A stretch of DNA of 60,201 nt. Source: Candidatus Onthoplasma sp. Its GTDB lineage: Bacteria > Bacillota > Clostridia > Christensenellales > UBA1242. A program made the translations under genes and the position numbers. The stretch is from assembly GCA_045637825.1 (NCBI GenBank), contig JAZUAD010000024.1, positions 1-60,201 of the forward strand, read 5' to 3'. The notes under the pieces are model-generated. The model was not told the origin of the DNA, made no database searches, and saw only the letters and a program-made list of their open reading frames with translations. Shown here piece by piece: positions 149-52,749 of this stretch; within the stretch, counting starts at the first letter, position 1, and every line of letters starts with the position of its first letter.

Positions 149-2299
149 ATGTCAAAAATTAAAAAACTTATATTAACCTTAGGTGTAGCATTTAGTATGG
201 CTATTGCTTTTGTGGTTGGTGCAGTGGTGCTAAAGCAGGATAAATCTAAGCCAAGTGATGAAACTCCTATAGCTACCTATATTCCAGTTAAGCACGCTAC
301 TTATCAATTTGAAGTTAATGAGGTAGAGATGTGCTCCGGTACTAAAAATATAAACTATAGTTATGTTCCAGACACAAATGCTGGTGCAACCTCTATAGCA
401 TATGAATATGTGTTTAATAATCCTATGGGTGAAACTATGGCAATTACATTAAAGACTATAGGTTCGGAGAATGTAAACCTAAGTTATGCTTATAGTGATA
501 CAAGGTTAACCAGTATTACTAGTAGTTCATCTCCATTTGCTGGGCAAACTATAAATACTCACCAAACCAAGTATATTTACATAATTGTATCTCCAAGCAA
601 TAGTATGACATCAGCAGAGTTTCAATCTACTATAACTTGGTATCAAGGTAAGGCAGGTACAATGACCTATACAATAGGTAATAACACTATTACTGATGTT
701 GTGGTTAAAGGTCAACCTATTACTCAATTAAATCCTGAAATAGATGATAGTTATGAACTTACTGGCTGGTACTATGATGAGGAATGTACTCAACCAGTAA
801 CTTTCCCAATCAAGGCAAATGTTGAAACACTTTATCCAAAAGTTAATCGTAAACCAAACCTACCTAGCGACTGGATTAAATGGGATAGCGCAAGCAGTAG
901 TTATCATATGTTTGATCCGTATGATAGAGGATTCAGTGGAGAAGTTGAAGATATTGTGAATAACAATCCAGGACCTTTTACAGAGTTGCCTGAAGATTTA
1001 GTTATACCTGCATATTATGATGATGGAATTCATGGTAGGGCACCAGTTACTGAACTTCCTGCACCTTTTGCATCTCCTGATGGTATTGGACCAGACTCAT
1101 ATGAATCGGTATTTCAATCAAATGTAAGAAAAATTACTATACCTGAAACCATTACACAAATACGAGCAGGTACATTTGCATACAGTACAATAACTACTAT
1201 AACATTGCCAAACACATTAACAGAGATAAATTCTCATGCTTTTGCTTGTTCAAATTTAACTACTATAAATTTAAGTGAATGTGATGCTTTAACAACAATA
1301 GGAGACCGTGCATTTTTTGCTTCTAGTTTAGGTGGGGTTGTTGTATTGCCTATTAATGTTGTAAATATTGGATATGCATCTTTTACGTACGCCAACGTAA
1401 CAGAAATTGATTTGGGTGCTTGCAGAAATCTAACAACTATAGAAGAATATGTATTCGAGTCATGTTCTATAACAACTATAACTTTACCAGCAAGTTTAAC
1501 TACTATTGAAGATGATGCGTTTTTTGATTGTACCAACCTTATCACTATTTACAATGGTTCTAATCTTGAATTAGTAGCGGGTAGTAGTGACCATGGTCGT
1601 ATTGCATTGTATGCAACAAACATAATTAACTATCCTAAGGTTACATTTATGGCTAATGGCGGAACTTTTGAAGGCGTAGAGGGTATGGAAGGGTATGTGT
1701 TTGGTACTAATAGTGAAGTAGTTGTAGAAAACTTAAATTCTACTTATCCATTTACTGTAAATGCTAATGGTTATTGGGAGAGTGGAAATAAGGGTGTTAA
1801 CAACTCGTATTCACTTGCTAAAGTATCATTCTATGCCAATGCTGGTGACCAAGTAGTATTTACTGTAATTAACTATGCTGAAGCTAACTATGATTATGGT
1901 ATATTTGGTAACCTAGATAGTACATTGTCATCAAGTAATACAGCGGATTCTTCATACTATAAGAGATTTTATGGCGAATCAAGTGCTTCAGAAAAAACAG
2001 TTACTTATAATATAACTAGTGCTGGTGACCATTATATTTATGTTAAATTTAGAAAAGACAGTAGTCAACACAGTTATAACGATTCATTACAATTTAAGGT
2101 GGCGTTAGTATCAACTGTAACAAGTTATAGCAGTGCAGCTACTAAAGTTAAACCAAATGTTGCTATAGGCACAATGCCTACACCTATCCGTAGCGGATAT
2201 ACATTTGCTGGTTGGTATACTGATAAGAATTACACTACAAAAGTAACCTCAAGTTCTACAATAAGTGAAGATACTACTGTGTATGCTAAATGGGAATAA
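149..2299 (+). CDS. BspA-like leucine-rich repeat (LRR_5) surface protein with N-terminal membrane anchor and InlB B-repeat-like (Flg_new) domains, paralogue 1
   Basis: Basic+hydrophobic N-terminus; LPxxLTxIxxxAF repeats; GWYxDxxCT and PTPxRSGYTFAGWY...VYAKW B-repeat motifs; SD AAAGGGG. Confidence 0.85.
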   Translation: MSKIKKLILTLGVAFSMAIAFVVGAVVLKQDKSKPSDETPIATYIPVKHATYQFEVNEVEMCSGTKNINYSYVPDTNAGATSIAYEYVFNNPMGETMAITLKTIGSENVNLSYAYSDTRLTSITSSSSPFAGQTINTHQTKYIYIIVSPSNSMTSAEFQSTITWYQGKAGTMTYTIGNNTITDVVVKGQPITQLNPEIDDSYELTGWYYDEECTQPVTFPIKANVETLYPKVNRKPNLPSDWIKWDSASSSYHMFDPYDRGFSGEVEDIVNNNPGPFTELPEDLVIPAYYDDGIHGRAPVTELPAPFASPDGIGPDSYESVFQSNVRKITIPETITQIRAGTFAYSTITTITLPNTLTEINSHAFACSNLTTINLSECDALTTIGDRAFFASSLGGVVVLPINVVNIGYASFTYANVTEIDLGACRNLTTIEEYVFESCSITTITLPASLTTIEDDAFFDCTNLITIYNGSNLELVAGSSDHGRIALYATNIINYPKVTFMANGGTFEGVEGMEGYVFGTNSEVVVENLNSTYPFTVNANGYWESGNKGVNNSYSLAKVSFYANAGDQVVFTVINYAEANYDYGIFGNLDSTLSSSNTADSSYYKRFYGESSASEKTVTYNITSAGDHYIYVKFRKDSSQHSYNDSLQFKVALVSTVTSYSSAATKVKPNVAIGTMPTPIRSGYTFAGWYTDKNYTTKVTSSSTISEDTTVYAKWE

Positions 2300-2303
2300 A
2301 AAT

Positions 2304-3823: not shown

Positions 3824-4873
3824 TTATAATATTCCCCAAACAAACGAGCAAATAGTGATTAGCGAGCCTAATACAATGCTAGAATATAGGAATATTTTGT
3901 CAACAAATTTTAAAGCAGGTTCTGTATCTTCAATTAATTTGGTTGGTTTTGACGAGGTTTGCTTTAGTACAGTTTCTACTTCACTAAGTTTTTGTTGCAT
4001 TTCAGTATAACTTAAATCATCTAATTTTAGGTCCTTGGCAAGTTGTAATGCTACTTGCTTTTGCTTGTGGCGTGATATTGCTTTAAGTAGATTTCTATAA
4101 AGAGAAAATAGCAACATAATTACGCCTGAAAGTAGCAGTATACATAGCAATAATCCTGATGAAAATATTGCGTTTTCAACATTATATTTAAAGTCCGCTA
4201 AAGGCCAATTAAGTTCACGTCCATAACTAAAATATATGCTTAAAGCATTGTTCATAAAGTGTATTATCATAGCAGGGTATATGCTATCAGCAACTATTAC
4301 AACAATACCCATTAAGCAACCTAAAATGCTGGCATAAAAGAATTGCTGAATATTAAGATGCATCAAACCAAACAATAACGATGAAAATAGTAGTCCGTAA
4401 CGGGTGTAACCTTGTTTTTGGCTACCACGCATAAACATACCTCTATGCAAAACTTCTTCACAAATTCCAGGAACTATTGCCGTTAATAAAAACTCCATAC
4501 CAATGCTATTGCTAACGCTTAATGAAATGTTGATCGAATTGTCATAACCTAGCAGAGTGAGTATAGTGTAAAATATATCTGCTACATAATTATTGATAAA
4601 AAATAGTACAAATCCCAAGGCGATAGAATATAACAAAATTGTAAAGGATGTTTTTTTAAAACCAAAATCTTTAAAGGTGTTTTTAAAGCCCTTATTTACA
4701 AATATCGAGTACAGTATTATAGGAAGGGCAAACATTACAATTCCTTGTATTAAAAAGGTTGATATATACGAATTATTTAATACTTTGAAGTAACCCAAAA
4801 CAAAAATTAATGCTACACTTAGCATACACAGATAATATATTAAGTTGATAACAAAAATTTTTTTGTTTTGCAT
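3824..4873 (-). CDS. CPBP family (Abi/CAAX) intramembrane glutamic endopeptidase
   Basis: Multi-TM protein with EEVLHRG, FGLMH and IIHFMNN motifs. Confidence 0.9.
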   Translation of the reverse strand: MQNKKIFVINLIYYLCMLSVALIFVLGYFKVLNNSYISTFLIQGIVMFALPIILYSIFVNKGFKNTFKDFGFKKTSFTILLYSIALGFVLFFINNYVADIFYTILTLLGYDNSINISLSVSNSIGMEFLLTAIVPGICEEVLHRGMFMRGSQKQGYTRYGLLFSSLLFGLMHLNIQQFFYASILGCLMGIVVIVADSIYPAMIIHFMNNALSIYFSYGRELNWPLADFKYNVENAIFSSGLLLCILLLSGVIMLLFSLYRNLLKAISRHKQKQVALQLAKDLKLDDLSYTEMQQKLSEVETVLKQTSSKPTKLIEDTEPALKFVDKIFLYSSIVLGSLITICSFVWGIL

Positions 4874-4890: not shown

Positions 4891-5853
4891 TTATAACAAG
4901 ATTATATATAATAGTAGCATTATTGCAATAGAACCACACAATACTACTATATCGTTTTTACTAAGTTTTGAAGAAGTGATATTTTCATTATTTTGCGCAG
5001 TAGTATTATTAATATTATCAGTTGAAGAGTTTTGACGAGTCTTAATAAAATCCTTAAATAAATAGCACATAATAACAAACCAAATAGCAAAGGTAATAAA
5101 AGCATATATTAGCATAAATGCAGAGTGTGTAAATACTTCACTAGAGGAACTAAAATATTGTATGCTAAGACTTAGTGCGTTATTTATAAAATGCAATATT
5201 ATTGGAAAAATTATATTTTTGGTACGTAAATATAATATGCTTAAAATCATTCCAAAGAATATAGGATATAGCAGTTGCGCTGGTGAAAAGTGGAATATAG
5301 AAAACATTACAGAACTTAATATTATTGCAAAAATTTCACTTTTTTGCTTTAATGCGTTAACTAAAATTCCTCTAAATATTAATTCTTCACATATTGCAGG
5401 GATTATTGCTAGTGATATGAGCGATATTAGATAATTTTTGGTAGAATCTAGGTCATATTTTAGTGAGGCAGAAGTAAAACCAAGTTTATCAACAAGCAAT
5501 TGAAAATAATTAAGCACACCCGATAATAAAAATAATGATGAAATACCAATAATTATGCATATTCCAAAATATTTATAGGTTGGCTTGCTAGCTTTAGCAA
5601 AAATATCGTTCTTGTTTATTCGTTTGTAATACCATATAAATAATAGCACAAAACCAATGTTCATAAACAAGGCCTGCAATAAATAACCTACAGCGTTATC
5701 CCAAAAGGCGGATATTTGGGTGGCGGACCTACCGCACGCTTTCATAATTGCTTCGGTTAAACTGATGCCTATAATAGAGGTTAATTGTGCAAGCACAAAG
5801 GCCATAACAAAGGCAATGCCTGCATCAAATAAAGTTAAATTACGTTTTTTCAT
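4891..5853 (-). CDS. CPBP family (Abi/CAAX) intramembrane glutamic endopeptidase
   Basis: EELIFRG, FSIFH and ILHFINN motifs; multi-TM. Confidence 0.9.
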   Translation of the reverse strand: MKKRNLTLFDAGIAFVMAFVLAQLTSIIGISLTEAIMKACGRSATQISAFWDNAVGYLLQALFMNIGFVLLFIWYYKRINKNDIFAKASKPTYKYFGICIIIGISSLFLLSGVLNYFQLLVDKLGFTSASLKYDLDSTKNYLISLISLAIIPAICEELIFRGILVNALKQKSEIFAIILSSVMFSIFHFSPAQLLYPIFFGMILSILYLRTKNIIFPIILHFINNALSLSIQYFSSSSEVFTHSAFMLIYAFITFAIWFVIMCYLFKDFIKTRQNSSTDNINNTTAQNNENITSSKLSKNDIVVLCGSIAIMLLLYIILL

Positions 5854-7973: not shown

Positions 7974-8921
7974 ATGCAAAAATCAAGGTCAAAAACTTTA
8001 ATTTCACTAATTGTTTTTATTTCAATAACGCTATTTGTTATTAATCCTAAAGTATGTATGCAGGCAACTACTAATGGGCTAAAAGTTTGGTTAGTAAATG
8101 TGGTTCCTGCTCTTTTTCCATTTTTTATTTTAACGCGTATAATAATTATGCTTAATCAAACGTCGATAGTGTGTTTGGATAGATTTACTAACAAGTTTTT
8201 TAGAACGCAAAATGCTGGACTAGTATATTTTTTAAGTATGTTATCGGGTTATCCTGTAGGGGCTAAAATGATAAGCGGGTATTACGATAGTGGTGCAATT
8301 AACAAACAAACTGCAACCAAAATGTTTAGTTTTTGTTCTACATCAGGCCCTATGTTTATAATAGGTACTATAGGTATTGGAGTATTTCAGGATATAAAAA
8401 TTGGGTACATTTTATTGCTAGGACATATTATAGGAAGTTTTTTAAATGGACTAATATATCGAGGGAAAACTATACCAGAAAATCAGTTTGAACAAAAGGT
8501 TGGTTCAACAACGCTTAATGAAGTTATGTATGATAGTATTAATTCCATTTTGCTGGTAGGTGGCTATATAGTGTTTGCTTCGGTTTGTATTAAAATATTG
8601 GAAATTTCACATATTCTTCCATCAATAACAAATACTATTTGTAAAATAACATCATTTGATTATGAGATTGTGTATAGTATGTTATGTGGTGTGATTGAGA
8701 TTACTAATGGATTAATAATGTTAGGGCAAACTAATGTGGGACATAATATAAAAACAATATTAGCATCAATTATTATTGCTTTTTCAGGAATTTGTATTAT
8801 GCTACAAAGTTTAGGATTTTTAAATAAAATAGGGATAAAAAAAAGAACAATAATACTACAAAAGTTAACTCAAACTTTATTAACGGGATTTGTTACAGCT
8901 TTAATTCTTATGATAGTGTAG
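7974..8921 (+). CDS. ylbJ: sporulation integral membrane protein YlbJ-like
   Basis: GLKVW...VVPALFPFFIL, LSGYPVGAK, SGPMFIIGTIG and EITNG motifs. Confidence 0.85.
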   Translation: MQKSRSKTLISLIVFISITLFVINPKVCMQATTNGLKVWLVNVVPALFPFFILTRIIIMLNQTSIVCLDRFTNKFFRTQNAGLVYFLSMLSGYPVGAKMISGYYDSGAINKQTATKMFSFCSTSGPMFIIGTIGIGVFQDIKIGYILLLGHIIGSFLNGLIYRGKTIPENQFEQKVGSTTLNEVMYDSINSILLVGGYIVFASVCIKILEISHILPSITNTICKITSFDYEIVYSMLCGVIEITNGLIMLGQTNVGHNIKTILASIIIAFSGICIMLQSLGFLNKIGIKKRTIILQKLTQTLLTGFVTALILMIV

Positions 8922-11087: not shown

Positions 11088-11121
11088 ATTAATAAAAATG
11101 TCAAAAAATGTTGTAAAAGTT

Positions 11122-11153
11122 TTGACATTTTTTGTTTAATAGTGGTATACTAA
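11122..11153 (+). promoter_or_regulatory. sigma-A-type promoter of BspA-like gene 2 (TTGACA-N18-TATACT)
   Basis: TTGACA at 11122-11127; TAGTGGTATACTAA with TATACT at 11146-11151. Confidence 0.75.
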
Positions 11154-11184: not shown

Positions 11185-14100
11185 ATGACTAAGATGAAAA
11201 AATTAATGTTAAGTTTAACCATAGCATTTACAATGGCTATTGCTTTTGTAGTTGGTTTTGTTGGACTTAAAGATAAGGGCTATACCAATACTCCAGCGCA
11301 AGAGATGGGAGAGGTGAGTAAACCCACTACTCGTACCTATCTTCCAGGCGAGGTGGAGTTTGTACAATGTGCTCAAGGTCAAGGAATTAATTATAGTTAT
11401 ACCCCAGATGTAAATGCTAAAAATGGCACAGTTAAGGCGTATGAATATTGTTTTACTAATGTGGCTGATGAAACTATGGCAATTAACCTAAAGTCGATTG
11501 ATAAAACAGGTGTAAATGTAAACTATGCTGTTAGCGAAACCAAATTAACCGATAAATCTACTATTACCGGTTCTGAGGTTTTAGGTTTGCAAAAACTTTC
11601 TTCAAAGGGTAGTGTAAAATACATATACGTTTTGGTTGAGCCAACCGATGTTGAAATTCCAGTAACTTTTACAACTAGCGTTGTTTGGTATCTAGGTAAA
11701 CCTGGCACAATTTCAATATATAATCCTGACACAAATAGAGTAACCACTCAAGAAATTGTTAAGGGGCAAGAAGTGGAAGGAACAATCACAGCTCCTACAC
11801 CATCAGCGGGCTATACATTCTCGGGTTGGTATTTGGATAAGGAATGTACAATTCCAGTTCCAGAGGGTTATAGAACTCAAGGTCAACCATTGTTCCCTAA
11901 GTTTGCAGTTGACGGCAACTTGCCTAGCGATTGGATTGCTTGGGACGAGGCATCTAGCAGTTACAAGATGATTGACCCGTATGGTTATTATGCTCCATCT
12001 TCTCATGCGTATTATACAACTAATCCAGGACCTTTTAGTGATTTGCCTGATGAATTGGTTATTCCTCATATTTATAATGATGGTGTGCATGGCGAAGCTC
12101 CAGTAACTGCTATTCCTAATGGTATAGAATATGAAAGTGCATTAATTGTATACAAATCAATATTTGCTTTAAAAGGAACCAATGTAACTAGCATTACAAT
12201 ACCTAGTAGTGTAACAAATATTCCTAATGGTGCGTTTATGGACGCAAATATTACAACATTTAATCTTCCTAATACTATTAAAACTGTTGGTGTAGATGCC
12301 TTTGATGAAAATACTAATTATGTAACTTACAATGGTGCTAAATATATTGGTAGTACGTCTAATCCATATATGATTTTGTTAGAAGACAAAAATTCCTCAA
12401 CTGCCAATATCCATACTAATACTAGGGCTATAGCAGGCAAGGCCTTTGCTGAAAATCATAATTTGAACAGAGTTAATTTCCCTCAAGGATTAGTATCTAT
12501 AGGTGATTATGCTTTCTATTATTGCGATGGTTTAACTTCGGCAGATTTATCTGCATGTGCTAGTTTGGAAATTATTGGAGATTGTGCTTTTGAAGGATCT
12601 GTAATATCTAGCGTTACTATTACATCTAGCGTTACAACAATAGGCAATAGCGCATTCCAAACACTAACTTCACTAAACTCAGTTGATTTTAATAATGCAT
12701 CTAGTTTGGTTAATGTTGGTGACAGTGTGTTTTATTCACAAGACTTAAATGGTACTATAGACCTTAGCGGTTGTACTAGTTTAACTTATATACCAAGAGG
12801 TATGTTTGATCAAAATGTTGCAATATCTGGAATTGTATTACCTAGTAACATTACATCAATAGGAGCGAATGCGTTTAGAGACTGCTCAAGTTTAACAAGT
12901 GTTGTTATTCCTGATAGCGTTATAACTATTGGTGATAATGCGTTTGCTGATTCTGGATTGCAAAATATTACATTGTCTCAAAATTTAACAAGTATAGGAA
13001 ATAGTGCTTTTAGTTATACATCATTGGCTAGTTTAACTATTCCTAACAAAGTAGAAAAGATTGGACAATATGCGTTCGAGAGTGCTGGAATTACTTCACT
13101 TACATTAAATGGTGCTTGGTATCGTACTACTAGCCAAAATGACTGGAATAATATGCAAAATGGTACCGAAACAGATGTAAGTAATGCTACTACCACAGCA
13201 ACACTTTTGACTTCTACTTATAGCAACTGCTATTGGTATCGTAAGGACCCAGAGGGTAATCTACCTAGTGATTGGATAGCTTGGGACGAGGATAGTAGCA
13301 GTTACCATATGATAGACCCTTATGGAACATATGTGTATTTTGATGAAGAGAATTGGATGAATGAAACCATTGTTGCAAATCCAGGGCCATTTAGTGCTTT
13401 ACCTAATGATTTGATTATTCCTGCATTTTATGATGATGGAACTCATGGCGAAGCTCCTATTACCCAAATACCTGCAGGTATTGCAAATATGGATACAGGA
13501 CTGGTTTGGGAGTCAATATTGCCTAGTAATCTTACTAGTATAGTTGTACCATATACAGTTACATCAATTCCAGATATGGCATTTGCAGGTTTATCTAAAC
13601 TAAAAACTGTAACTTTACCTAATACAATTACAAGTTTTGGTGATTATTCGTTCTACTGCTCTGGGGTAACTACAGTAAATTTCCCAACTAGTTTGACGCA
13701 TTTTGGTGAAGAGGTTTTCTGGTGTTCCTATTTAACAACCGCAGATTTAAGTGGTTGTACAGGTTTACAAACCATTCCATATCATACTTTTTCTGATTGT
13801 TCTTTAACTAGTGTGTCATTACCCGAAGGGTTAATTTCAATTGGAAGTTCTGCTTTTTATTGTAATCAAAGTTTATCATCAGTTTCGTTACCAAGTACAT
13901 TAATATCTATCGGAAGTTCTGCTTTTGAAGTGTGTGAATCATTAACTGGAATAACTTTGCCAGAAGGCTTAAAAACTATAGAAAGTAGTGCATTTTCTGC
14001 AACAGGATTAACAACTATAACGTTGCCAGATAGTTTAATCTCTTTAGGTTCAGGAGCTTTTGACGGAACGAGCATATCATATAATACTTTCTATAATGCA

Positions 14101-15228
14101 TACTATTTACCAAGCAATACAAACCCTGACTTTGCATTAATAAAAGCAATTAGCACTGATATAACAGACTGTCCAATATCTGAGGATACAAAAGTTATTG
14201 CCGGTGGAGCTTTTTCTGGTTGTACTAATTTGTCAAACATAACTCTTCCTGGCTCAATAACATCAATTGAGAGTAGTACTTTTTCTAATTGTAAATCATT
14301 AACTAGTATAATAATACCTAGCTCTGTTACTAGTATAGGTAGTTCTGCCTTTTATGGTTGTGAAGCATTGAGGTCAGTAACTTTTAGTCCTAATATTGAA
14401 TCTTTAGGTTCTTCGGCTTTTGGTAGTTGTTATGCACTTACCTATATTGATTTAAGTTCGTGTACTAAATTAACTACTTTGCCTCAAAGTGTGTTTAATA
14501 GAACTTATTCTCTAATTTCTGTAGAATTGCCAGAAACTATTACCAAAATTGACTCAGGGGCTTTTGAATACTCAGGTGTTATGACAATTATTTTACCAAG
14601 CAGTTTAACATCAATAAATAGCAGAGCATTTGACTATTGTTATAGATTAGTAGAGGTATATAATTTGTCAAATGTATCCATATCAAATGGAAGTAATATT
14701 GGAAGAGATGTAATACTTAAAGGTTTGTATACTAACTTAAATACTACAAGTAAAATACAAACAATAAATAATATGCAATATTATGTAGATGGAACTGATT
14801 TTATTGCTCTTGGTTTGGCTGATACTACAATTACTAGTATTACATTAGATAGCAGAACTACAGCAATTCATAGATATGCATTTTATATTAATAAAAAGTT
14901 AAGTAGTGTTAATTTAACTAATTGTACCTCTTTGAAATCCATTGGATATTATTCATTTGGTGCTTGTAGTGCTTTAACCTCTATTACAATTCCTGCTAGT
15001 GTTAAAACTATCGGTAGAAATGCTTTTAGTAGTTCCGGATTAACTAGTGTTACATTTAAGCAAACTAGTGGTTGGTATCGTACAACCTCAGCAACATCTG
15101 CAGGTTCATCACTTACTGTGTCTAATGCCAGCACGGCTGCGACTTATCTAAAAACTACATATTCTACTAGTTTCTGGTATAATACTAATGCTGGTGGAAG
15201 TTATCGTGATTATCAGTATCAATACTAA
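11185..15228 (+). CDS. BspA-like LRR_5 surface protein, paralogue 2 (two tandem head-LRR-cap modules)
   Basis: Same N-terminal anchor and domain as 149; NLPSDWIAWD occurs twice; many LPxxLxSIGxxAF repeats; C-terminal TSGWY...FWYNTNAGG cap. Confidence 0.88.
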   Translation: MTKMKKLMLSLTIAFTMAIAFVVGFVGLKDKGYTNTPAQEMGEVSKPTTRTYLPGEVEFVQCAQGQGINYSYTPDVNAKNGTVKAYEYCFTNVADETMAINLKSIDKTGVNVNYAVSETKLTDKSTITGSEVLGLQKLSSKGSVKYIYVLVEPTDVEIPVTFTTSVVWYLGKPGTISIYNPDTNRVTTQEIVKGQEVEGTITAPTPSAGYTFSGWYLDKECTIPVPEGYRTQGQPLFPKFAVDGNLPSDWIAWDEASSSYKMIDPYGYYAPSSHAYYTTNPGPFSDLPDELVIPHIYNDGVHGEAPVTAIPNGIEYESALIVYKSIFALKGTNVTSITIPSSVTNIPNGAFMDANITTFNLPNTIKTVGVDAFDENTNYVTYNGAKYIGSTSNPYMILLEDKNSSTANIHTNTRAIAGKAFAENHNLNRVNFPQGLVSIGDYAFYYCDGLTSADLSACASLEIIGDCAFEGSVISSVTITSSVTTIGNSAFQTLTSLNSVDFNNASSLVNVGDSVFYSQDLNGTIDLSGCTSLTYIPRGMFDQNVAISGIVLPSNITSIGANAFRDCSSLTSVVIPDSVITIGDNAFADSGLQNITLSQNLTSIGNSAFSYTSLASLTIPNKVEKIGQYAFESAGITSLTLNGAWYRTTSQNDWNNMQNGTETDVSNATTTATLLTSTYSNCYWYRKDPEGNLPSDWIAWDEDSSSYHMIDPYGTYVYFDEENWMNETIVANPGPFSALPNDLIIPAFYDDGTHGEAPITQIPAGIANMDTGLVWESILPSNLTSIVVPYTVTSIPDMAFAGLSKLKTVTLPNTITSFGDYSFYCSGVTTVNFPTSLTHFGEEVFWCSYLTTADLSGCTGLQTIPYHTFSDCSLTSVSLPEGLISIGSSAFYCNQSLSSVSLPSTLISIGSSAFEVCESLTGITLPEGLKTIESSAFSATGLTTITLPDSLISLGSGAFDGTSISYNTFYNAYYLPSNTNPDFALIKAISTDITDCPISEDTKVIAGGAFSGCTNLSNITLPGSITSIESSTFSNCKSLTSIIIPSSVTSIGSSAFYGCEALRSVTFSPNIESLGSSAFGSCYALTYIDLSSCTKLTTLPQSVFNRTYSLISVELPETITKIDSGAFEYSGVMTIILPSSLTSINSRAFDYCYRLVEVYNLSNVSISNGSNIGRDVILKGLYTNLNTTSKIQTINNMQYYVDGTDFIALGLADTTITSITLDSRTTAIHRYAFYINKKLSSVNLTNCTSLKSIGYYSFGACSALTSITIPASVKTIGRNAFSSSGLTSVTFKQTSGWYRTTSATSAGSSLTVSNASTAATYLKTTYSTSFWYNTNAGGSYRDYQYQY

Positions 15229-16698: not shown

Positions 16699-17430
16699 AT
16701 GTGGGAATTTTCACTAGCGTGTAGTAATAAAAATAAACATATATTAGATTATATTAATTCGTGCTTTTGTGCGGATTTGCCAGATTGTATGCTAACAACT
16801 TTTACCGATAATCATTTTACATATTTATTATTTGCTTGCGAGGATAATATTAAAAACTTATGCAAAGCAAAAATTAAAAAATGTATTACGACTTACATAA
16901 TTGACGAGTATAAATATCACTACTTTATAAATAAAATTTTAAAGAATAAAACACTTGTTCATCTTGCCTATATTAAGGCATTAACTTTATATGACGTGGA
17001 GTCGGATATTGCGCTATTAAATAGCGATTTGGAACTGGATAGACAATTTTATATTGATAGTTATATACATTTCAAATTAAATGACCTTGTAAGAATGTGG
17101 CAAGAATTATGTGATTTAATTATAAGTAATATAAATTATTTAAACAACAATATGATGATAGATGTTATGAAAAGTTTTATTGCTACTTTTGATACATCTT
17201 TTATTACTCTAAAAATTATCATTGAACAGGATTATTTCGTGCTTTATAAAACCGACAACACTCAAAATCCTATTAAGTTAAAAGACAAAGCACAAGACAT
17301 AGATATTATTAATTACACACTACTTTTAAACCCTAAGCATATTGAAATTTATGGAAATACTAGCGATAAATTTTCTATGATAAGTCTACTTAAATCACTA
17401 TATAATGACAAAGTGGAAGTTATGAGCTAA
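16699..17430 (+). CDS. ytxC: putative sporulation protein YtxC-like
   Basis: Located upstream of thrS as in Bacillota; IDSYIHFKL...W and LLLNPKHIEIY patterns; CATACGAT element upstream. Confidence 0.6.
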   Translation: MWEFSLACSNKNKHILDYINSCFCADLPDCMLTTFTDNHFTYLLFACEDNIKNLCKAKIKKCITTYIIDEYKYHYFINKILKNKTLVHLAYIKALTLYDVESDIALLNSDLELDRQFYIDSYIHFKLNDLVRMWQELCDLIISNINYLNNNMMIDVMKSFIATFDTSFITLKIIIEQDYFVLYKTDNTQNPIKLKDKAQDIDIINYTLLLNPKHIEIYGNTSDKFSMISLLKSLYNDKVEVMS

Positions 17431-17544
17431 TCATTAATTATGTAAATTAGAAATAAATGTGATAAATTTTTTAAAAGTGATTGACTTTTTTATTAATTGG
17501 TTTATAATATATTATGAAAGTTAAATCTTTCAGTATCTTAATAA

Positions 17545-17770
17545 ATCGTAGACTGCAGACAAGTAGATTGTTAATCAACTGTTACAGAGAGTTCCCTGCC
17601 GGCTGAGATTGGGGCATAGTATTAATAATTGAAACCACTGTATGAGATTTTGACTATAGGGAATAGTCCTAAAATTAAGTGAATTAGTCCGCTACTACGG
17701 TGGCGGTTAGTTAAATAAGGTGGAACCGCGATAATATCGTCCTTATGTTTTTGCATTGGGACGTTTTTTG
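17545..17770 (+). ncRNA. T-box riboswitch, threonine-specific (specifier ACC)
   Basis: AGTA 17562, CAGAGA 17585, GGCTGAGA 17601, GAA-ACC-A specifier (ACC at 17634-17636), T-box AAATAAGGTGGAACCGCG 17713-17730, terminator 17738-17769; TTGACT/TATAAT promoter at 17481-17508. Confidence 0.92.
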
Positions 17771-22902: not shown

Positions 22903-23006
22903 ATATAAAATCCATAAATCATTTATGGAGTTTATTTTTATAAATTTTTAAAATTTTTGTAAAAAGGGTTGACATTTGGGTTGTGGTGTGCTAAAATATG
23001 GTTGTT

Positions 23007-23121: not shown

Positions 23122-23139
23122 ATGGTACGGAGGTTTATT

Positions 23140-37028: not shown

Positions 37029-38819
37029 GTGCAAATGATAAATAAAGGATTTAGCCAAGCATTCTTGGACGAGTTGATAGCCAAAAATGATATTGTGTCC
37101 GTTATGTCCAAATATATTACATTGACTAGGCGTGGTGGAAACTACTGGGCGTGTTGTCCATTTCATATGGAAAAGACGCCGTCAATGTCAATTAAGGAAG
37201 ACGGGCAGTTTTTTAAGTGCTTTGGTTGCGGTGAGGGCGGAAATGTTATTACCTTTGTACGCAAGATTGAAGATGTGGATTTTGTAAAGGCAGTTGAAAT
37301 TTTGGCTAAAAATGCTGGGATGCAAATGCCAGAATATCAAGATAGCGATGAAATGCGTAAGAAAAAGCAAGCACGTGATAGAATTTTATCAGTATTAAAG
37401 GCAACTAGTGAGTTTTATATTAGCAATCTAAACAAGATTGAGGCAAATAAGCATATTGACTATATTCGCAAACGTGGACTTAGCGATGAAATGGTAACTA
37501 AATTTAAAATTGGTGCTTCTACTGATTTTTATAGTTTGATTAAGCATTTGCGTGGGCTTGGTTTTACCGAAAAGGAAATGATAGATAGCGGTGTTGCGGG
37601 CAAAAATGACGAAAATGGAAGTTTGTATGACTTTTATGGGACAAGACTGATATTCCCTATAATTAATGGACTTGGTGAAGTGGTTGGCTTTAGTGGCCGA
37701 GACCTAAGCAACGACCCTCAACGAGCAAAATATAAAAACACGCCTCAAACCTTAGTATTTAACAAAAGTAATTTGATATATGGTTATCATTTTTTAAGAG
37801 AACTTAAAAAACAAAAGATGTTAGATAGTATTTTATTGGTGGAAGGGCAGATGGACGTAATTGCTTGCCATCAAGCAGGGGTTAATAGTGCCATAGGCGT
37901 TATGGGAACTGCACTTACTGCTAATCACGCAAGAGATTTAAGATATTTAACCAACGATATTATAGTTTGTCTTGATGGTGACAAGGCGGGCGAGGGTGCA
38001 ACTTATAAAGCGCTGGAAATATTAAAACAGGCGGGTATGAACGTGAAAGTGGTACGTTTAACCAAGGCAAAAGACCCTGATGAATACATTAAAAAGTTTG
38101 GTACTGAAGCATTTATTGATGAACTATTTAAAGCGGGCGATTATATGGAATTTATATTGCTAGATTTGGCAAAAAAATACGATATATCTAATCGTGCTGA
38201 TAGAAACAAATATATAAATGACGCTATTGATTATTTATCAAGGTTATCTACCTCCTATGAGCAAGAAATATATTTGCCTGTATTAAAAGAAGTGGTTAAA
38301 GTGCCTATTGAAACCTTGCGAAACTCCTTGCACGGAGCAAGAGAACAGTATTCAAAAACTGAAACTGAGGAAGATATAGAATTAAAAACTAATGCCTATG
38401 AACCTATTGCAAAGATTTGCATTTTGGCTAGTTTGTTGTATGGAAAAACCTCTCAAACCTTAAATTATGAGGACTTGTTTGATGAAAAAGATGAATATGG
38501 ACAGGTTTTTGCTTATATTTTAGATAAAATTAGCAATAATCAAGATATAAATATTTCAACTATATATTCAAGTTTTGATATTGAAAAGGATAGCGTATGG
38601 GACAAGGTTATTAATTATAACTTTCCTGATGAACAAGTGTTTTATAAATATTTAAGAGATTGTGAATATCGCCTAAGAATTAATAAATTTACTAAGGCAA
38701 AACAACAACTTAAATCAAAGCTAAGCTTATCTATGAATTTAGATGAAAAATATGATTGTTTGGCTAGACTAGAACTTTTAGATGACCAAATAGCAAAAAT
38801 GGAAAAGGAAATAAAATGA
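37029..38819 (+). CDS. dnaG: DNA primase
   Basis: CPFH..KTPS..FKCFGC zinc finger, KYKNTP, VEGQMDV and LDGD.AG TOPRIM motifs; start may be ATG 37035. Confidence 0.97.
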   Translation: MQMINKGFSQAFLDELIAKNDIVSVMSKYITLTRRGGNYWACCPFHMEKTPSMSIKEDGQFFKCFGCGEGGNVITFVRKIEDVDFVKAVEILAKNAGMQMPEYQDSDEMRKKKQARDRILSVLKATSEFYISNLNKIEANKHIDYIRKRGLSDEMVTKFKIGASTDFYSLIKHLRGLGFTEKEMIDSGVAGKNDENGSLYDFYGTRLIFPIINGLGEVVGFSGRDLSNDPQRAKYKNTPQTLVFNKSNLIYGYHFLRELKKQKMLDSILLVEGQMDVIACHQAGVNSAIGVMGTALTANHARDLRYLTNDIIVCLDGDKAGEGATYKALEILKQAGMNVKVVRLTKAKDPDEYIKKFGTEAFIDELFKAGDYMEFILLDLAKKYDISNRADRNKYINDAIDYLSRLSTSYEQEIYLPVLKEVVKVPIETLRNSLHGAREQYSKTETEEDIELKTNAYEPIAKICILASLLYGKTSQTLNYEDLFDEKDEYGQVFAYILDKISNNQDINISTIYSSFDIEKDSVWDKVINYNFPDEQVFYKYLRDCEYRLRINKFTKAKQQLKSKLSLSMNLDEKYDCLARLELLDDQIAKMEKEIK

Positions 38820-39340
38820 TACAAATAGATACAAGTGATATTTTATATAAAACCTTGCAAAAATTAGGCGAGGAAGATGTAGATAATAAATATTTATATT
38901 TTGCCGGCGAAGGTATAGCAACTTTAAAAGACTTTAATAATTATTTGCAATCTCAGTTAGGTATGGATTATGTGGGTGAGTTTGATGAAAATTGTTTTGA
39001 GGAAGTGGTGGACTATTATACAGATTTGAAACTACACAAAGCACCTCCTAAAAGTCAATTAAATAAGTTATTAAAGAAATATAAAGAAAATCCTAACGCA
39101 GAACTTAAGGCAGATATAATAAATTCGCAATTAAAGGAAGTGCTGTTAATAGCGTGCGCTTATAAATTATGTCATACAGAAATAAATTTAGGCGATTTAG
39201 TTCAAATATGCAATTTGGGACTAATTAATGCGGTTGACAAATATAATATTAATTCAAAATTGGCTTTTGAAACCTACTTGAATTACTGGATATTAGATGC
39301 AATAAATAAAGAATTTACACAAGGAGAAAAAAATGAATAA
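38816..39340 (+). CDS. truncated sigma-70-like protein (regions 1.2 and 2 only)
   Basis: [16 protein letters not shown]...[17 protein letters not shown]...FETYLNYWI aligns with SigA region 2; overlaps the dnaG stop and the sigA start. Confidence 0.75.
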
Positions 39341-45249: not shown

Positions 45250-45507
45250 ATGTTATTAGATGAATTAGATAATTATATAACGCAAGAATTAGGCGTTACC
45301 TTAAAAGAATATCGCTATATTAATATTGGTGGCAAAATGGTGTATATTGAAGGGCAAAACGGGATAGAGACTTTAACTCGTGATGAAATTAGTTTTAAGG
45401 TGCGCAAAAAACAATGCACAATCAAAGGCAGTGACCTTTACATTAAATATTACGACAATAGTACGGCTTTAGTATGTGGTAGCATAGTTAGTGTGGTGGT
45501 ATTATGA
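45250..45507 (+). CDS. yqfC: YabP/YqfC family sporulation protein
   Basis: IGGKMVYIEG..GI and IKGSDLYI...VCGSI motifs; directly upstream of yqfD. Confidence 0.75.
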   Translation: MLLDELDNYITQELGVTLKEYRYINIGGKMVYIEGQNGIETLTRDEISFKVRKKQCTIKGSDLYIKYYDNSTALVCGSIVSVVVL

Positions 45508-46604
45508 AACCATTAGTAAAAATACGTGTTGTGGGTTATAATCTTGACCAACTACTTAACAAACTTCAAAATAAAAATATTATAGTGTATAACATTGAAC
45601 GATCGGAAAACAATGTTATGTTTTTTAGCATTAATTATAAGGACTTAAAACAAGTAAAACCGCTACTTAAAAATTACGAATATAATTTAAAATATCTTGG
45701 ATTAGCAAATTTAAAAAACTTTATCAAAAACAACTTGGCAATTTTATTAATTATTCCTTTTGCGCTTGTGTTGATGGCTTTTTCTACTAGACTTACGTGG
45801 AATATTAAAATTTATGGTGCAGAGGGAGAGTTGGATAGGCAGGTTATTAGCATATTAAAAGACAATAATATTAGCGTTGGAAAAGTTTTGCCACAAAATA
45901 CCGAAGATATTGAAAAAATATTACTTAATCAACTGCCAAATGTAGCTCAGGTAAGTTGCATAACTAGGGGAACCACTATAATAATTAATATTAGTAAAAA
46001 ATTAGTGTATGTTCCTGAGAGCTATGAACCTTTACGTGCTAGTTATAGTGGAGTTATTACCGGGTTTTCGTTGATTTCTGGAACAATGGCGGTTAATTGT
46101 GGTGATTTTGTAAATAATGGTGATATTTTAGTTTATCCTTTTGCTTTGGATAAAAATGGAAATCAAGTTAAAGTTGAACCGATTGCAGAGGTTAGGGCAA
46201 AGGTATATATTGTTGGCTCTTCTAAACTTAGTGCAACAACCACCGAACTGGTTAGGACAGGGCGAAAATATACAACATATAGTACAAAATTTTTAAACAC
46301 AAAATTATTTTCAAAAAAATATCAAAAACCATTTGATATTTATGAAAGTTGCGTGTATAATGAAAATATAAGTAGTGTGTTGCCTATTAAACGAACAAGG
46401 GTAATATATTATGAACTAGATTATGTTGTAGTTAACTATGACTTGGTGGCGGAGAAAGGTAGAATTGAGAGAGAAAGTATTGATTTGGCGTACCTTAATT
46501 TGCCTACAAATAGCGAGATTTTGGATGAACAAACCACAAGTCTAGTGATTAATGATACACTATATACAACCACAACTTTAACAATATCTACAATTATTAG
46601 TTAA
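45504..46604 (+). CDS. yqfD: stage IV sporulation protein YqfD-like
   Basis: W.IKIYG, RGTTIII, A...GVI......G...V..GDFV..GDILV and AEVRAKV motifs. Confidence 0.8.
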   Translation: MKPLVKIRVVGYNLDQLLNKLQNKNIIVYNIERSENNVMFFSINYKDLKQVKPLLKNYEYNLKYLGLANLKNFIKNNLAILLIIPFALVLMAFSTRLTWNIKIYGAEGELDRQVISILKDNNISVGKVLPQNTEDIEKILLNQLPNVAQVSCITRGTTIIINISKKLVYVPESYEPLRASYSGVITGFSLISGTMAVNCGDFVNNGDILVYPFALDKNGNQVKVEPIAEVRAKVYIVGSSKLSATTTELVRTGRKYTTYSTKFLNTKLFSKKYQKPFDIYESCVYNENISSVLPIKRTRVIYYELDYVVVNYDLVAEKGRIERESIDLAYLNLPTNSEILDEQTTSLVINDTLYTTTTLTISTIIS

Positions 46605-49626: not shown

Positions 49627-49678
49627 AAAATATATTAAAATCTTTTGACAAAATTTTACAATTAGTGGTATACTAAAA
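49627..49678 (+). promoter_or_regulatory. sigma-A-type promoter of BspA-like gene 4
   Basis: TTGACA 49645-49650, N18, TATACT 49669-49674. Confidence 0.8.
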
Positions 49679-49740: not shown

Positions 49741-52700
49741 ATGAGTAAACTTAAAAAATTATTGTTAAGTTCAGTAATAGCAGTTACAATGGCTATTGCT
49801 TTTGTGGTTGGTATTGTTGGGCTAAATAAAGATAATGTTACTAATAAAACCAAGTTAACACAGGTCGCTTATAGCGATATGTTTGAGGTCAAACAATATA
49901 GTTATGATAACAATGAAGTATTGATGTGTAAGGGTAAGGATAATATCAAATATAGTTATATCCCTGGTGTAAATAGTAAGGAAACATCAGTAGTATCATT
50001 TGAATATAGGTTTAATAATCCAATGTCAACCCCTATGGCAATAAACCTAGATAGTATAGATACAACAGGAGTAACAGTAAGTTACGCCTATAGTGATACC
50101 AAACTAAATAGTATAACAAATAGTACATCACCATTTGAGGCACAAACTATACAACCAAATCAAACCAAGTACATATACGTGGTAGTAACAGCAGGAAATA
50201 TTGCATCAACCACCGAATTTCAATCAGAAATCTCATGGTGGCAAGGTAAAGCAGGAACAATGTCGTATGTAATAGAGGGCAATATATCTAATGCAACCAT
50301 AGTTAAGGGACAACCAGTAAATGAACCTATTAATACAGATGAAAGTATATTAATAGCAGGTTGGTATTTAGATAGTGATCATACAATACCTGCAACTTTC
50401 CCATTAAACACACAAGGTCAAACATTATATGCGCAAGTAGCTGATGGTAATTTGCCTAGTGACTGGATTACTTGGGATAGTAGTACTAGTACTTATACTA
50501 TTGCAAGTGGGTCATCTTCACTGCCTGAGAATGTAATAGTGCAAGGCACACACAATGATGGTACACATGGTAAAGCGAATATTACATCGGTATCTACAGA
50601 AGCTTTTTATTATTATGATTATATAAAATCAATAAATTTAAGCAAGTGTACAGGATTAACAACAATAAATACATACGCATTTGGTTTTGCTCAAGGTTTA
50701 AAAAAGGTTGTTTTACCTACGAGTTTAACAACAATAGGAAATAATGCATTCTATAGCTGTATTAAATTAACAAGTATAGACTTAAGTGTTTGTTCCAATT
50801 TAACTTCTATAGGTGAAAATGCTTTTTATGGTAATGCCTTTCCTGTTGCGGATTTAAGAAATTGCACTAATTTAACAATCATTAGTAGTAAAGCGTTTAA
50901 TAATCATACTCGTTTACAAACTGTTATATTACCTCCAAATATAACCTCTATAGGAACAGAAGCTTTTAGTTGTGTAAAATTAAAAAATGTTGATTTTAGC
51001 AGGTGTACTAAATTAACAACAATAAATCAAAGTGCTTTTAATGGTGCATCATTAACAAGAGTTGATTTGAGTTATTGTACCAGTTTAAAAACAATAGGTA
51101 ACTATGCTTTTAATAATAATTATAGACTAACTAGCATAATTATTCCATCAAAGGTTACTAGTCTTAGTAGTTCCGGATTTCAAAACACATATGCGTTAGC
51201 AGAAGTATATAATTTATCTGGTTTAACAATAACGTTAGGAGGTAGTTATGGTCATGTAGGGTACTATGCAAAAGTTATACATACAAGTTTATCTACACCA
51301 TCTAGTATTATAACAATAGAAGGAGTGCAATATTATAAGGAAAGTGATACTAGTTATATAGCATTAGCTCCAACAGATAATAGTATAAAATATGCAAATT
51401 TACATCCAAATACAACTTCTATTAATAGTTATGCTTTTAGAACGTGTTATGAATTGGGGTATGTAGTTATTCCAAGTAATGTGACAAGTATACAAAAAGA
51501 TGCATTTTATTATTGCTATGGGTTGAAATATATATACGATTTATCGCCTAATGTAACTATTACTGCAGGCGGAACAGATAATGGAAATGTTGGGCAATAT
51601 GCAACAGTTATAAAAACAAGTTTAGATGATTGTATTGAAACTATAAATGGAGTAATCTATTATAAGAATAGTGACTCCAATTACACAGCGTTGGGTACTG
51701 AAGATAAAAGTATTACTAGTATAACACTGCATCCTAATACCGTAGAGATTAATGATTACGCATTTAGGAGCTATTATAATTTGGCGAGTGTGGATTTAAG
51801 CAGATGTACAAAATTAACTACAATAGGAAGTAATGCATTCTATGAATGTAGTAGTTTAACAAGTGTAGATTTAAGTAATTGTACAAGTTTAACCACAATA
51901 GGAAGTAGTGCATTCCAACAATGTAGTAGTTTAACAAGTGTAGGAGATTTAAGCAGATGTACAAAATTAACTACAATAGGAAGTAATGCATTTTCTGCTT
52001 GTAGTAGTTTAACAAGTATAGTAATCCCAAGTGGAGTAACAAATATAGGAAATACAGCTTTTGGTACGTGTTATACCTTAGGTGTGGTATATAATTTATC
52101 AAGTTTAACAATAACAGCTGGAAGTAGCGATAATGGGTATGTGGCAAATTATGCAGGAGTGGTTAAAACAAGTTTGGATACAGAAAATAAGTTTGAAACA
52201 ATAAATGGAGTAACCTACTATAAAGATAGTGCTACAAGTTATATTGTTATATGTCTAGCAGATATAAGTTTAACAAGTATAACTTTACACGCAAATACAA
52301 CAATAATTAAACCTTATGCTTTCTATGGTAAAAGAATTTTAACAGAGGTTAATTTCACTAATTGTACAAAATTAACTACAATAGGAAATTATGCTTTTCA
52401 AAGTTGTGTCAGTGTAACAAGTGTAGATTTAAGCAATTGTACAAAATTAACAATAATAGGAAGGTCTTCATTTGCTTCTTGTAGTAAATTAATAAGTATA
52501 ACTATACCAGCAAGTGTTAAAAATATAGGTACATATGCATTCAGTGGTAGTAAAGCTTTAACCAGTGCAACGTTTAAACAAACTAGTGGTTGGTATGTAA
52601 CAACGTCTAAGACATCGTCTGGTACAAGTTTGACCTCAACTGATTTAAGCGATACAAGCACTGCAGCAACGTATTTAATATCAACACACTATACTAAATT

Positions 52701-52749
52701 CTGGTATAATACTAATGCTGGTGGTAAGTATAGTGATTATGTAGCATAA
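49741..52749 (+). CDS. BspA-like LRR_5 surface protein, paralogue 4
   Basis: Same anchor, N-domain, B-repeat and NLPSDW head; DLSxCTxLTTIGxxAF repeats; three insert modules; FWYNTNAGG cap. Confidence 0.88.
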   Translation: MSKLKKLLLSSVIAVTMAIAFVVGIVGLNKDNVTNKTKLTQVAYSDMFEVKQYSYDNNEVLMCKGKDNIKYSYIPGVNSKETSVVSFEYRFNNPMSTPMAINLDSIDTTGVTVSYAYSDTKLNSITNSTSPFEAQTIQPNQTKYIYVVVTAGNIASTTEFQSEISWWQGKAGTMSYVIEGNISNATIVKGQPVNEPINTDESILIAGWYLDSDHTIPATFPLNTQGQTLYAQVADGNLPSDWITWDSSTSTYTIASGSSSLPENVIVQGTHNDGTHGKANITSVSTEAFYYYDYIKSINLSKCTGLTTINTYAFGFAQGLKKVVLPTSLTTIGNNAFYSCIKLTSIDLSVCSNLTSIGENAFYGNAFPVADLRNCTNLTIISSKAFNNHTRLQTVILPPNITSIGTEAFSCVKLKNVDFSRCTKLTTINQSAFNGASLTRVDLSYCTSLKTIGNYAFNNNYRLTSIIIPSKVTSLSSSGFQNTYALAEVYNLSGLTITLGGSYGHVGYYAKVIHTSLSTPSSIITIEGVQYYKESDTSYIALAPTDNSIKYANLHPNTTSINSYAFRTCYELGYVVIPSNVTSIQKDAFYYCYGLKYIYDLSPNVTITAGGTDNGNVGQYATVIKTSLDDCIETINGVIYYKNSDSNYTALGTEDKSITSITLHPNTVEINDYAFRSYYNLASVDLSRCTKLTTIGSNAFYECSSLTSVDLSNCTSLTTIGSSAFQQCSSLTSVGDLSRCTKLTTIGSNAFSACSSLTSIVIPSGVTNIGNTAFGTCYTLGVVYNLSSLTITAGSSDNGYVANYAGVVKTSLDTENKFETINGVTYYKDSATSYIVICLADISLTSITLHANTTIIKPYAFYGKRILTEVNFTNCTKLTTIGNYAFQSCVSVTSVDLSNCTKLTIIGRSSFASCSKLISITIPASVKNIGTYAFSGSKALTSATFKQTSGWYVTTSKTSSGTSLTSTDLSDTSTAATYLISTHYTKFWYNTNAGGKYSDYVA
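51793..51992 (+). repeat. 47-bp exact direct repeat inside the LRR-coding array (51793-51839 and 51946-51992)
   Basis: GATTTAAGCAGATGTACAAAATTAACTACAATAGGAAGTAATGCATT occurs twice, 153 bp apart. Confidence 0.85.

Follow-up and report, generated by a model that had tools for sequence, protein, structure and literature searches.

A BspA-type leucine-rich repeat protein family of Candidatus Onthoplasma that probably diversifies by duplication and recombination, with a seam at the boundary between stalk and repeat unit

The Listeria internalins constitute a Gram-positive multigene family of leucine-rich repeat (LRR) surface proteins with InlB-type B-repeats, whose mosaic evolution by recombination has been reported. 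In lampreys, variable lymphocyte receptors arise somatically, when promoterless cassettes are built into an incomplete gene, and antigenic variation of the pilE/pilS and vlsE type draws on silent donor copies, nearly identical at their borders, for a single expression site. Here we analysed a stretch of 60,201 nucleotides (hereafter the window) from Candidatus Onthoplasma sp. (GenBank assembly GCA_045637825.1, contig JAZUAD010000024.1), in which four dispersed genes starting at positions 149, 11185, 24906 and 49741 encode LRR proteins of the BspA type. They resemble Tannerella BspA, Treponema TpLRR/LrrA and pneumococcal PcpA in their PF13306 (LRR_5) repeats and in a C-terminal cap motif common to other LRR_5 proteins, and their sequence relatives in the PDB are of the LRR_5 type: 4fs7 (2.6e-29), 4gt6, 4h09, TpLRR 6mlx (6.1e-15) and PcpA 4cp6 (8.8e-12). 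They differ from the described proteins in combining a putative signal-anchor, a domain of no known family, an Flg_new B-repeat and one or two complete LRR units.

BspA is an adhesin according to the available excerpt of PMC5476646. The same excerpt describes Candidatus Mycoplasma girerdii as a reduced-genome, partner-associated organism that devotes a large share of its genome to many divergent BspA-like surface proteins, a situation like the present one, with at least 28 copies there against 13 plus about 4 other LRR_5 genes here; unlike here, expression is switched in that organism, in the words of the excerpt, by dinucleotide repeat tracts. In the accessible parts of PMC2584048, intra- and intergenic recombination alters repeat number and yields chimeric genes in the Leishmania PSA family of LRR proteins, and in those of PMC2843621 it is suggested that the BspA-like family of Trichomonas vaginalis owes some of its diversity to recombination between its copies. 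Both belong to eukaryotic parasites and have other flanking domains, whereas in the family studied here the breakpoint maps to the boundary between stalk and LRR unit and the freshest exchange lies at promoters and 5' ends. Leishmania, Trichomonas, mycoplasmas and Listeria all provide earlier examples of LRR surface families that recombine; the present case is no new kind of mechanism.

The four genes probably belong to a lineage-specific family of BspA-type adhesins in a reduced-genome gut clostridium, a family that diversifies as adhesin families commonly do, through duplication of genes and of LRR blocks and through homologous recombination from one paralogue to another. Its main recombination seam is the domain boundary between stalk and LRR unit at a conserved junction motif, NLPSDWI, and its most recent exchanges lie at the 5' ends of the genes, in promoter, 5' untranslated region (5'UTR), anchor and N-terminal domain (N-domain). 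There is no sign of a programmed receptor-assembly system.

The window covers the initial 60.2 kb of a contig of 138 kb, in an assembly of 1.05 Mb and 44 contigs (31% G+C, 96.7% complete). Below, G000 denotes this genome, C-numbers (C11, C17, C25 and so on) denote its contigs, and G003, G022 and G044 denote its three closest relatives. A profile of the N-terminal module found 13 family copies in G000, the window accounting for four and other contigs for nine; together they make up 3.82% of the genome. One copy of ~1560 aa is split between contigs C11 and C17, which share 141 identical bases within this gene, at C11:1-141 and at the high-coordinate end of C17 (its final 141 bases, at 23343); the length of the overlap hints at the assembler's word length.

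An earlier note, drawn from the letters of the window, had ascribed one build to the four window genes, and this proved correct. Their frames are real and open under table 11, in which TGA is a stop as it is in the host, and their first ~250 residues, containing the anchor and N-domain motifs quoted in that note, align at 44-51% identity. All four carry LRR_5 (E 1.6e-30 to 8.5e-172), scoring 106, 562.7, 237.8 and 315.3 bits where the cut-off is 27.7. The B-repeat, Flg_new, is above threshold in 149 (68.1 bits) and 24906 (33.7 bits), falls below its cut-off in 11185 (20.1 bits) and is not among the matches listed for 49741. Each protein would run from a signal-anchor through a ~140-aa, beta-sandwich-like N-domain and the B-repeat to one or two LRR units, each unit predicted to comprise an N-cap that begins at the junction and bears a long or a short head, then an LRR_5 array, then a C-cap. 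The four genes and their parts are as follows.

149 to 2299, plus strand: family gene 1, 716 aa, with anchor, N-domain, B-repeat, junction, long head, short LRR_5 array, and an extra C-terminal domain plus second Flg_new; without C-cap.
158 to 241, plus strand: N-terminal hydrophobic segment of gene 1 (aa 4-31) from the hydropathy scan, read as a putative signal-anchor.
251 to 673, plus strand: N-domain of gene 1, ~140 aa, with no Pfam family.
674 to 856, plus strand: Flg_new or InlB-type B-repeat of gene 1, from Pfam and a weak profile match to the InlB B-repeat in the PDB.
857 to 886, plus strand: junction of gene 1, NLPSDWIKWD, start of the LRR unit (N-cap); the family breakpoint falls in this motif.
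887 to 1036, plus strand: long (type L) head of gene 1, ending at DGIHG; nearest relative gene 11185 unit 2, 53-56%.
1646 to 2290, plus strand: extra C-terminal domain (aa 500-661) and second Flg_new (aa 662-714) of gene 1, from identity to paralogues and Pfam.
11185 to 15228, plus strand: family gene 2, 1347 aa, with two LRR units.
11917 to 13254, plus strand: LRR unit 1 of gene 2, with junction, long head, LRR_5 array and internal cap.
13258 to 15225, plus strand: LRR unit 2 of gene 2, with junction, long head, LRR_5 array and terminal cap.
24906 to 27530, plus strand: family gene 3, 874 aa from ATG, with short head, one LRR unit and C-cap.
25641 to 27527, plus strand: LRR unit of gene 3; N-cap nearest C23_10510 (83%), then C17_8512 unit 2 (75%).
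49741 to 52749, plus strand: family gene 4, 1002 aa, with short head, one long LRR unit and C-cap.
50449 to 52746, plus strand: LRR unit of gene 4; its final 811 nt match the 3' end of C23_10510 at 76% identity.

For gene 24906 the listed frame begins at a TTG at 24882, and the ATG at 24906 was used as start. Its LRR unit contains two copies of a ~134-aa super-repeat, with an internal repeat of 80.7% identity over 353 nt.

A degenerate DNA pattern for NLPSDWI occurs at exactly five sites in the window, the very codons given in the earlier note (857, 11917, 13258, 25641 and 50449), and at none in 100 shuffles. In the three genes with two units (11185, C17_8512 and C23_10510), the second junction follows directly after a cap-like stretch, an order that makes the junction the opening element of an LRR unit and the cap its closing one. 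Heads and caps are distributed among the window genes as that note had described. Long heads occur in 149, both units of 11185, C17_8512 unit 1, C13_33883, C25, C18 and C36, and short heads in 24906, 49741, C30, both C23 units, C17_8512 unit 2 and C13_8592, with the C11/C17 gene intermediate. The C-cap is present in 11185, 24906 and 49741 and absent from 149; it is not specific to the family, as an unrelated 1359-aa LRR_5 protein has three copies of it. Three members (gene 149, the C11/C17 gene and C18_26692) end in an extra C-terminal domain and a second Flg_new, which in gene 149 stand in place of the cap, the end of gene 149 being 63-73% identical to that of the C11/C17 gene and 37-50% to that of C18_26692. 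The ~160-aa extra domain, encoded in gene 149 within 1646-2131, has no Pfam family and weak Filamin/PPC hints only, and recurs at 41-65% identity in 236 other proteins with Flg_new, LRR_5, PF03382, PF06605 or no-family builds.

A hydropathy scan found one N-terminal hydrophobic segment, at about residues 4-31, in all 13 family proteins and no C-terminal one. Sortase had no match in the genome, and no choline-binding, LPXTG or lipoprotein anchor was seen in the family proteins; we read the N-terminus as a probable signal-anchor. The family is like the Listeria internalins in its B-repeat, with a weak match to InlB, and unlike them in its LRR_5 class and its apparently N-terminal anchoring in place of LPXTG or GW; no internalin-specific family is among the Pfam matches of the four window genes, where the LRR entries are LRR_5, LRR_8, LRR_4 and LRR_EndoS and neither an internalin-type LRR with its N-cap nor an inter-repeat Ig-like region is listed. 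For the N-domain, none of three pieces matched any Pfam family at E<=5, and no sequence relative was found in the PDB. The Atlas model of an N-domain homologue, P0013, has galactose-binding-like jelly rolls of the F5/8 type C, DUF3999 and allantoicase types as structural neighbours, at template-modelling (TM) scores of 0.42-0.56, which lie below the service's own bar, and a jelly-roll, beta-sandwich-like fold is accordingly offered here as a lead only.

The evidence that relatedness changes along the genes, as the earlier note had claimed for four of them, comes from a paralogue search, segment trees and a breakpoint test of the kind it had suggested, using all 13 paralogues. In the N-domain tree, 149, 24906, 49741, C17_8512, C13_33883 and C30 form a clade with support of 95/97, within which 24906 and C17_8512 pair at 99/98, and 11185, C11 and C25 form a second clade (89/94). 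The N-cap tree, made without the head insertion, is incongruent with it and contains a group of C36, C25, C17_8512 unit 1 and C18 (94/93). By the approximately unbiased (AU) test, the N-cap data reject both the 24906+C17_8512 pair (p 6e-6) and the six-member N-domain clade (p 7.6e-4), and the N-domain data in turn reject the N-cap clade (8e-7), the long-head group (2.7e-5) and 149+11185 (4e-5). A single-breakpoint scan over 12 paralogues lowered the corrected Akaike information criterion (AICc) from 12552.9 with one tree to a minimum of 12374.2 at alignment column 270, a position within the junction motif. With each side given its own branch lengths on a common topology as baseline, topology alone accounts for 65 units of log likelihood (lnL), and both the AU and the breakpoint results held under LG+C20. 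The pairwise homoplasy index (PHI) was below that of 1000/1000 permutations for protein and for codon positions 1+2, and below all but 1/1000 for all nucleotide sites. Consistent with a mosaic, painting by nearest paralogue shows the best partner shifting along each gene.

Other segments were less informative. The B-repeat is too short for a resolved tree, its best tree pairing 24906 with C17_8512 and 11185 with C25, and the C-cap is likewise too short. A GENECONV-like test of longest tracts was discarded, nearly every pair having matched at the conserved junction or anchor. The earlier note had also paired 11185 with 24906, and 149 with 49741, by the end of the N-domain and the linker; this found no support, the N-domain data rejecting 24906+11185 (p 1e-61) and the B-repeat data deciding neither way (p 0.18 and 0.13). 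Its broader proposal, segmental recombination or conversion between dispersed loci that builds variable LRRs on a constant stalk, survives in its first part, through the differing segment histories, the placing of the best breakpoint in the junction and at least one conversion-like patch across contigs. The stalk itself is not constant: mean identity over all pairs is 39% in the N-domain, below the 47% of the cap and the 53% of the junction.

The cross-contig patch joins gene 24906 to C17_8512.

24889 to 25505, plus strand: conversion-like patch shared with C17:8512(-), about -17 to +600 of gene 24906, covering the end of the 5'UTR, the anchor and the N-domain.

The two genes are ~90% identical at the nucleotide level over nt 120-560, in sharp contrast to about 40-50% past nt 630. 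They share an exact 56-nt match from -17 to +39, while their promoter blocks further upstream are 46% identical, and within the patch the same codon is used at 92/108 conserved residues. A patch flanked on both sides by unrelated sequence is the pattern that gene conversion leaves. A second 5' case is an exact match of 114 nt (-46 to +68) between C13_33883 and C30_2292, whose N-domains are 42% identical. We also noted, in the related genome G003, three paralogues (L062, L066 and L069) with patches of 90-100% identity over the first ~600 nt followed by a sharp fall, the best partner differing by patch; nothing in the window speaks as clearly for ongoing conversion.

Outside the 5' ends no tract reaches 95% or more. 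The best identity between paralogues is 81% over 799 nt, and the longest exact match is the 114 nt just mentioned, or 41 nt within the LRR parts. The fraction of conserved residues with the same codon is 0.54-0.57 in every segment, the 5' ends excepted, against 0.50 expected at saturation from the codon usage of the family. It is therefore selection, and not recent copying, that maintains caps and junctions, and the exchanges are mostly old, with exceptions at the 5' ends. An origin of 24906 from a two-unit gene like C17_8512 by loss of unit 1 was considered and set aside, the support being weak (70.5% over 349 nt; 30/38 same N-cap codons).

The promoters show a second form of 5' sharing. A family promoter block consists of a palindrome, ATGTCAAAA-N12/13-TTTTGACAT, whose right arm lies over a TTGACA -35 element, followed by an extended -10, TGGTATACT. 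Its copies, and the promoters of the other window genes, are as follows.

11098 to 11151, plus strand: promoter block of gene 11185, palindrome with N13 spacer; the best promoter-like site of the region, 11/12 matches with TG.
41 to 148, plus strand: promoter region of gene 149, with a degenerate palindrome copy at 41-70 over a TTGACT -35, from the genome pattern scan.
24810 to 24839, plus strand: promoter of gene 24906, TTGACA, 18 nt, TATACT with TG.
49645 to 49674, plus strand: promoter of gene 49741, the same version as that of gene 24906 (81% identity of blocks).
Palindrome sites: 11098-11151 and 41-70 in the window, C11:864-894, C13:33798-33827, C18:26748-26778 and C30:2206-2236; a seventh, degenerate, at C21:12023.

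A block of ~66 nt with a perfect 9-bp palindrome is 85-94% identical in five paralogues, against a median of 52% for all 78 pairs, and the five genes that share it belong to different N-domain lineages, with N-domains 45-65% identical at the DNA level. Of the seven sites in the genome, six lie just upstream of family genes. The family genes of G003 keep a related -35/-10 layout and not the palindrome, and a search of a public genome collection found it at three unrelated sites, the one in L168 lying between recA and spoVA-like genes. The block looks like an operator for a regulator.

How the family is spread bears on the age and the source of its parts. Matches to the N-module number 12-16 in G003, two in G022 and four in G044, so that copy number among close relatives stands at 2, at least 4, about 12 and 13. 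There was none in 200 other genomes of the GTDB family (58 genera), none in 22 further genomes of the same genus or in 16 of the same order except for one match to the B-repeat only, and none among four in a further search. Searching 1.84 billion cluster representatives gave 137 at E <= 1e-30, and 85 of the 151 stored proteins have the whole module; the nearest non-self relative of the gene 149 module is 50% identical, and clusters hold 1-3 members. In a related-locus search with one protein, 47/48 loci matched only part of residues 108-246 (the B-repeat), the remaining one, L032, spanning 41-240. In a joint N-domain tree the copies of G000 and G003 interleave, which makes several N-domain lineages older than the species. 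The long head was found solely in G000 proteins (7/85 stored members with the N-module) and there on four N-domain lineages, which fits spread within the genome. One locus is clearly syntenic, beside an mpaA-like gene, where the G003 family gene is 34% identical to gene 149 and the neighbours are 63-87% identical. From recO to an rlmB-like gene, the genes lie on separate contigs in G003 and G022, and in distant genomes they are separate or 42-146 kb apart; this interval was unusable for a synteny comparison.

We searched for the parts of a programmed variation system. An LRR_5 scan of the genome gave 69 matches, 68 of them over the cut-off and all in long open frames without stops, spread over the 13 family members plus four or five further LRR genes whose N-termini differ; silent or promoterless LRR cassettes were found nowhere among them. 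Two tandem LRR_5 genes on C18 (6319-7962 and 7975-9804, minus strand), one with a coiled-coil N-terminus and the other a membrane protein with its own Flg_new, indicate that LRR_5 units occur on several kinds of stalk in G000. All 13 family copies are complete, each with its own start, anchor and promoter. For a diversity-generating retroelement, no RVT_1 reverse transcriptase match was found in the 96.7%-complete genome. Homopolymers of at least 8 number zero in 42.8 kb of family DNA, compared with 0.136 per kb genome-wide, and no repeat tract lies in the family genes or in the 200 nt before them, apart from a single dinucleotide repeat at +3584 of one gene. No convincing long inverted repeats surround the promoters, the four in the window having short, imperfect, AT-rich repeats only. 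The family departs from cassette-type antigenic variation with one expression site and near-identical silent donors, since every copy has a promoter. It is like the lamprey receptors in having LRR arrays between an N-cap and a C-cap and in module content that varies by copy, and unlike them in that every copy is complete with its own promoter and no cassettes exist; with synonymous sites near saturation as well, the analogy to combinatorial LRR receptors drawn in the earlier note finds no support.

That note also saw no recombinase in the window. This is right for site-specific enzymes, neither a transposase nor a site-specific recombinase being present there, but not for the general machinery, as RecO, RuvA, RuvB, RuvC and RuvX are encoded inside the window (RecA elsewhere in the genome). 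The genome as a whole has four tyrosine recombinases and one resolvase. One of them, a 418-aa tyrosine recombinase at C25:8824-10080 (L166:4325-5581, minus strand), lies 0.6 kb upstream of C25_8199. A tRNA-Ser stands on one side of it and an HsdR-type (type I restriction) gene on the other, no convincing repeats flank it, and a link with the restriction system or with an integrated element is more probable than one with the LRR gene.

Several other explanations have to be weighed against duplication and recombination between paralogues. Unequal rates, convergent head indels and differential loss of modules after simple duplication could imitate a mosaic with no recombination, and the B-repeat and cap trees, which resolve nothing, leave room for this, as do the conserved junction and anchor, which give every pair local similarity, spoiled the GENECONV-like test and may inflate PHI. 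Yet AU rejects the other segment's groups in both directions, the gain of 65 lnL persists with separate branch lengths on one topology, and the 24906/C17_8512 patch is bounded on both sides and supported at synonymous sites; we hold an account free of recombination to be very unlikely. It is extremely improbable that the mosaic arose because a metagenome assembler chimerised reads of paralogues or strains, in spite of the 44 contigs, the C11/C17 overlap inside a family gene and the frequent position of G003 family genes at contig ends. The longest exact matches (114 nt, and 41 nt in the LRR parts) are shorter than the 141-nt overlap, the breakpoints part sequences of 40-80% identity that shared words could not bridge, the four window genes lie inside the 138-kb contig between single-copy core genes, and the same mosaic recurs in the independently assembled G003. 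Separate acquisition of modules from different gut bacteria, each then joined to a stalk already present, would explain why the C-cap motif stands three times in an unrelated LRR_5 protein and why the extra C-terminal domain occurs in 236 proteins of many builds. Such lateral transfer is unlikely nonetheless, for the type-L heads, among the 85 stored members with the N-module, were seen only in proteins of this genome and yet sit on four N-domain lineages, and the extra domain of gene 149 is as close or closer to its in-genome relative (63-73%) than to the best match outside (65%).

Active high-frequency variation, with ongoing conversion among the 13 loci and perhaps exclusive expression through the operator-like promoter, would reshuffle binding modules within a population. 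The exact matches of 56-114 nt and the 90-100% patches at 5' ends in two species speak for it, as do the palindromic block with 6/7 of its genomic sites upstream of family genes, the strongly different copy number among close relatives, and the gene beside the mpaA-like gene that is so much more divergent between G000 and G003 than its neighbours. Against this stand the lack of silent or partial cassettes and of a reverse transcriptase, the absence of long homopolymers and of long inverted repeats round promoters, LRR parts that share at most 41 nt exactly with synonymous sites near saturation, and the position of the only family-adjacent tyrosine recombinase by tRNA-Ser and a type I restriction gene; we consider active variation quite unlikely. 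We give equally little credence, or hardly more, to the idea that the 13 genes form a contingency repertoire, in which a common regulator would pick copies, conversion would swap 5' parts, and recombination at the junction would bring in new LRR units and so change the attachment partner.

Duplication and recombination between paralogues, combined with an adhesin role, has its own weak points. The putative adhesin role is argued from family membership and lifestyle. That the junction forms an LRR N-cap and that the N-domain folds as a jelly roll are readings from sequence position and one below-threshold Atlas comparison. Selection acting on a regulatory site, in place of conversion, could account for the near-identity of the 66-nt promoter block. 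PHI can be inflated where conserved sites cluster, and the groups in the AU tests were named after the identity tables and the first tree had been seen, which makes the p-values somewhat optimistic. With the cap and B-repeat trees giving no resolution, just one boundary is firmly placed, and the comparison draws on one genome per species. The two public sequencing runs found with 5% of the sampled words represent related species and not this one, yielding at 80% likeness contigs of those species (~82-90% in housekeeping genes) and short LRR fragments.

Taken with these reservations, the analysis shows a family diversified by the duplication of genes, by LRR blocks duplicated in tandem, and by homologous recombination or conversion among paralogues at dispersed loci. 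We infer that exchange would run through the general RecA/RecO/RuvABC machinery on an evolutionary time scale and not as a programmed switch, while the shared palindromic promoter block would put part of the family under one regulator.

The four family genes are placed singly among core genes on the plus strand, and their neighbours include an mpaA-like gene, ruvX, rsmD, ogg, thrS, infC, rplT, scpAB, ftsY, dnaG, rpoD, floA, era, recO, ruvCAB and ffh. RuvB is 92-96% identical to that of metagenome-assembled genomes from animal faeces titled Candidatus Onthoplasma or Clostridia bacterium, and the taxonomy puts Candidatus Onthoplasma in the Christensenellales. Housekeeping proteins are 78-89% identical to those of G003, G022 and G044 and 41-54% to those of other genomes of the GTDB genus. 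In the available portion of PMC12306168, UBA1242, the GTDB family to which that genus belongs, are gut bacteria with genomes <1 Mb, devoid of most biosyntheses and probably dependent on other cells. Sporulation-type genes occur in this 1-Mb genome (ylbJ at 7974-8921, a weak ytxC at 16699-17430 and yqfD at 45504-46604), which fits a remark on UBA1242 in the same portion of PMC12306168.

Further features of the window were noted in passing. Two neighbouring paralogues of the CPBP family of intramembrane proteases (3824-4873 and 4891-5853, minus strand) lie downstream of gene 149, and the pair occupies the same place in G003 at 75% and 63% identity. Between dnaG and rpoD, a 174-aa frame (38816-39340), residues 71-168 of which resemble RpoD region 1.2-2 at 32% identity, is a truncated sigma-like protein or a remnant. 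In an Rfam scan of the 60-kb window no family reached its gathering score, and no tRNA was found there; the scan recorded a T-box leader at 17540-17747, ~730 nt before thrS (78.7 bits against a gathering score of 93; E 2.7e-16), and an L20 leader at 23002-23129 before infC (37.6 bits, under a gathering score of 58.7).

For the biology of this organism, a family that takes up 3.8% of the genome within one small clade, at 2 to 13 or more copies, provides concrete candidates for the attachment proteins of Onthoplasma. The proteins would be adhesins or ligand binders, attaching a metabolically dependent bacterium to partner cells or host surfaces. For bacterial LRR families, it provides a clean example of domain boundaries as recombination seams. 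Were the 13 genes a contingency repertoire after all, lineages could switch the partner cell or host surface to which they are attached.

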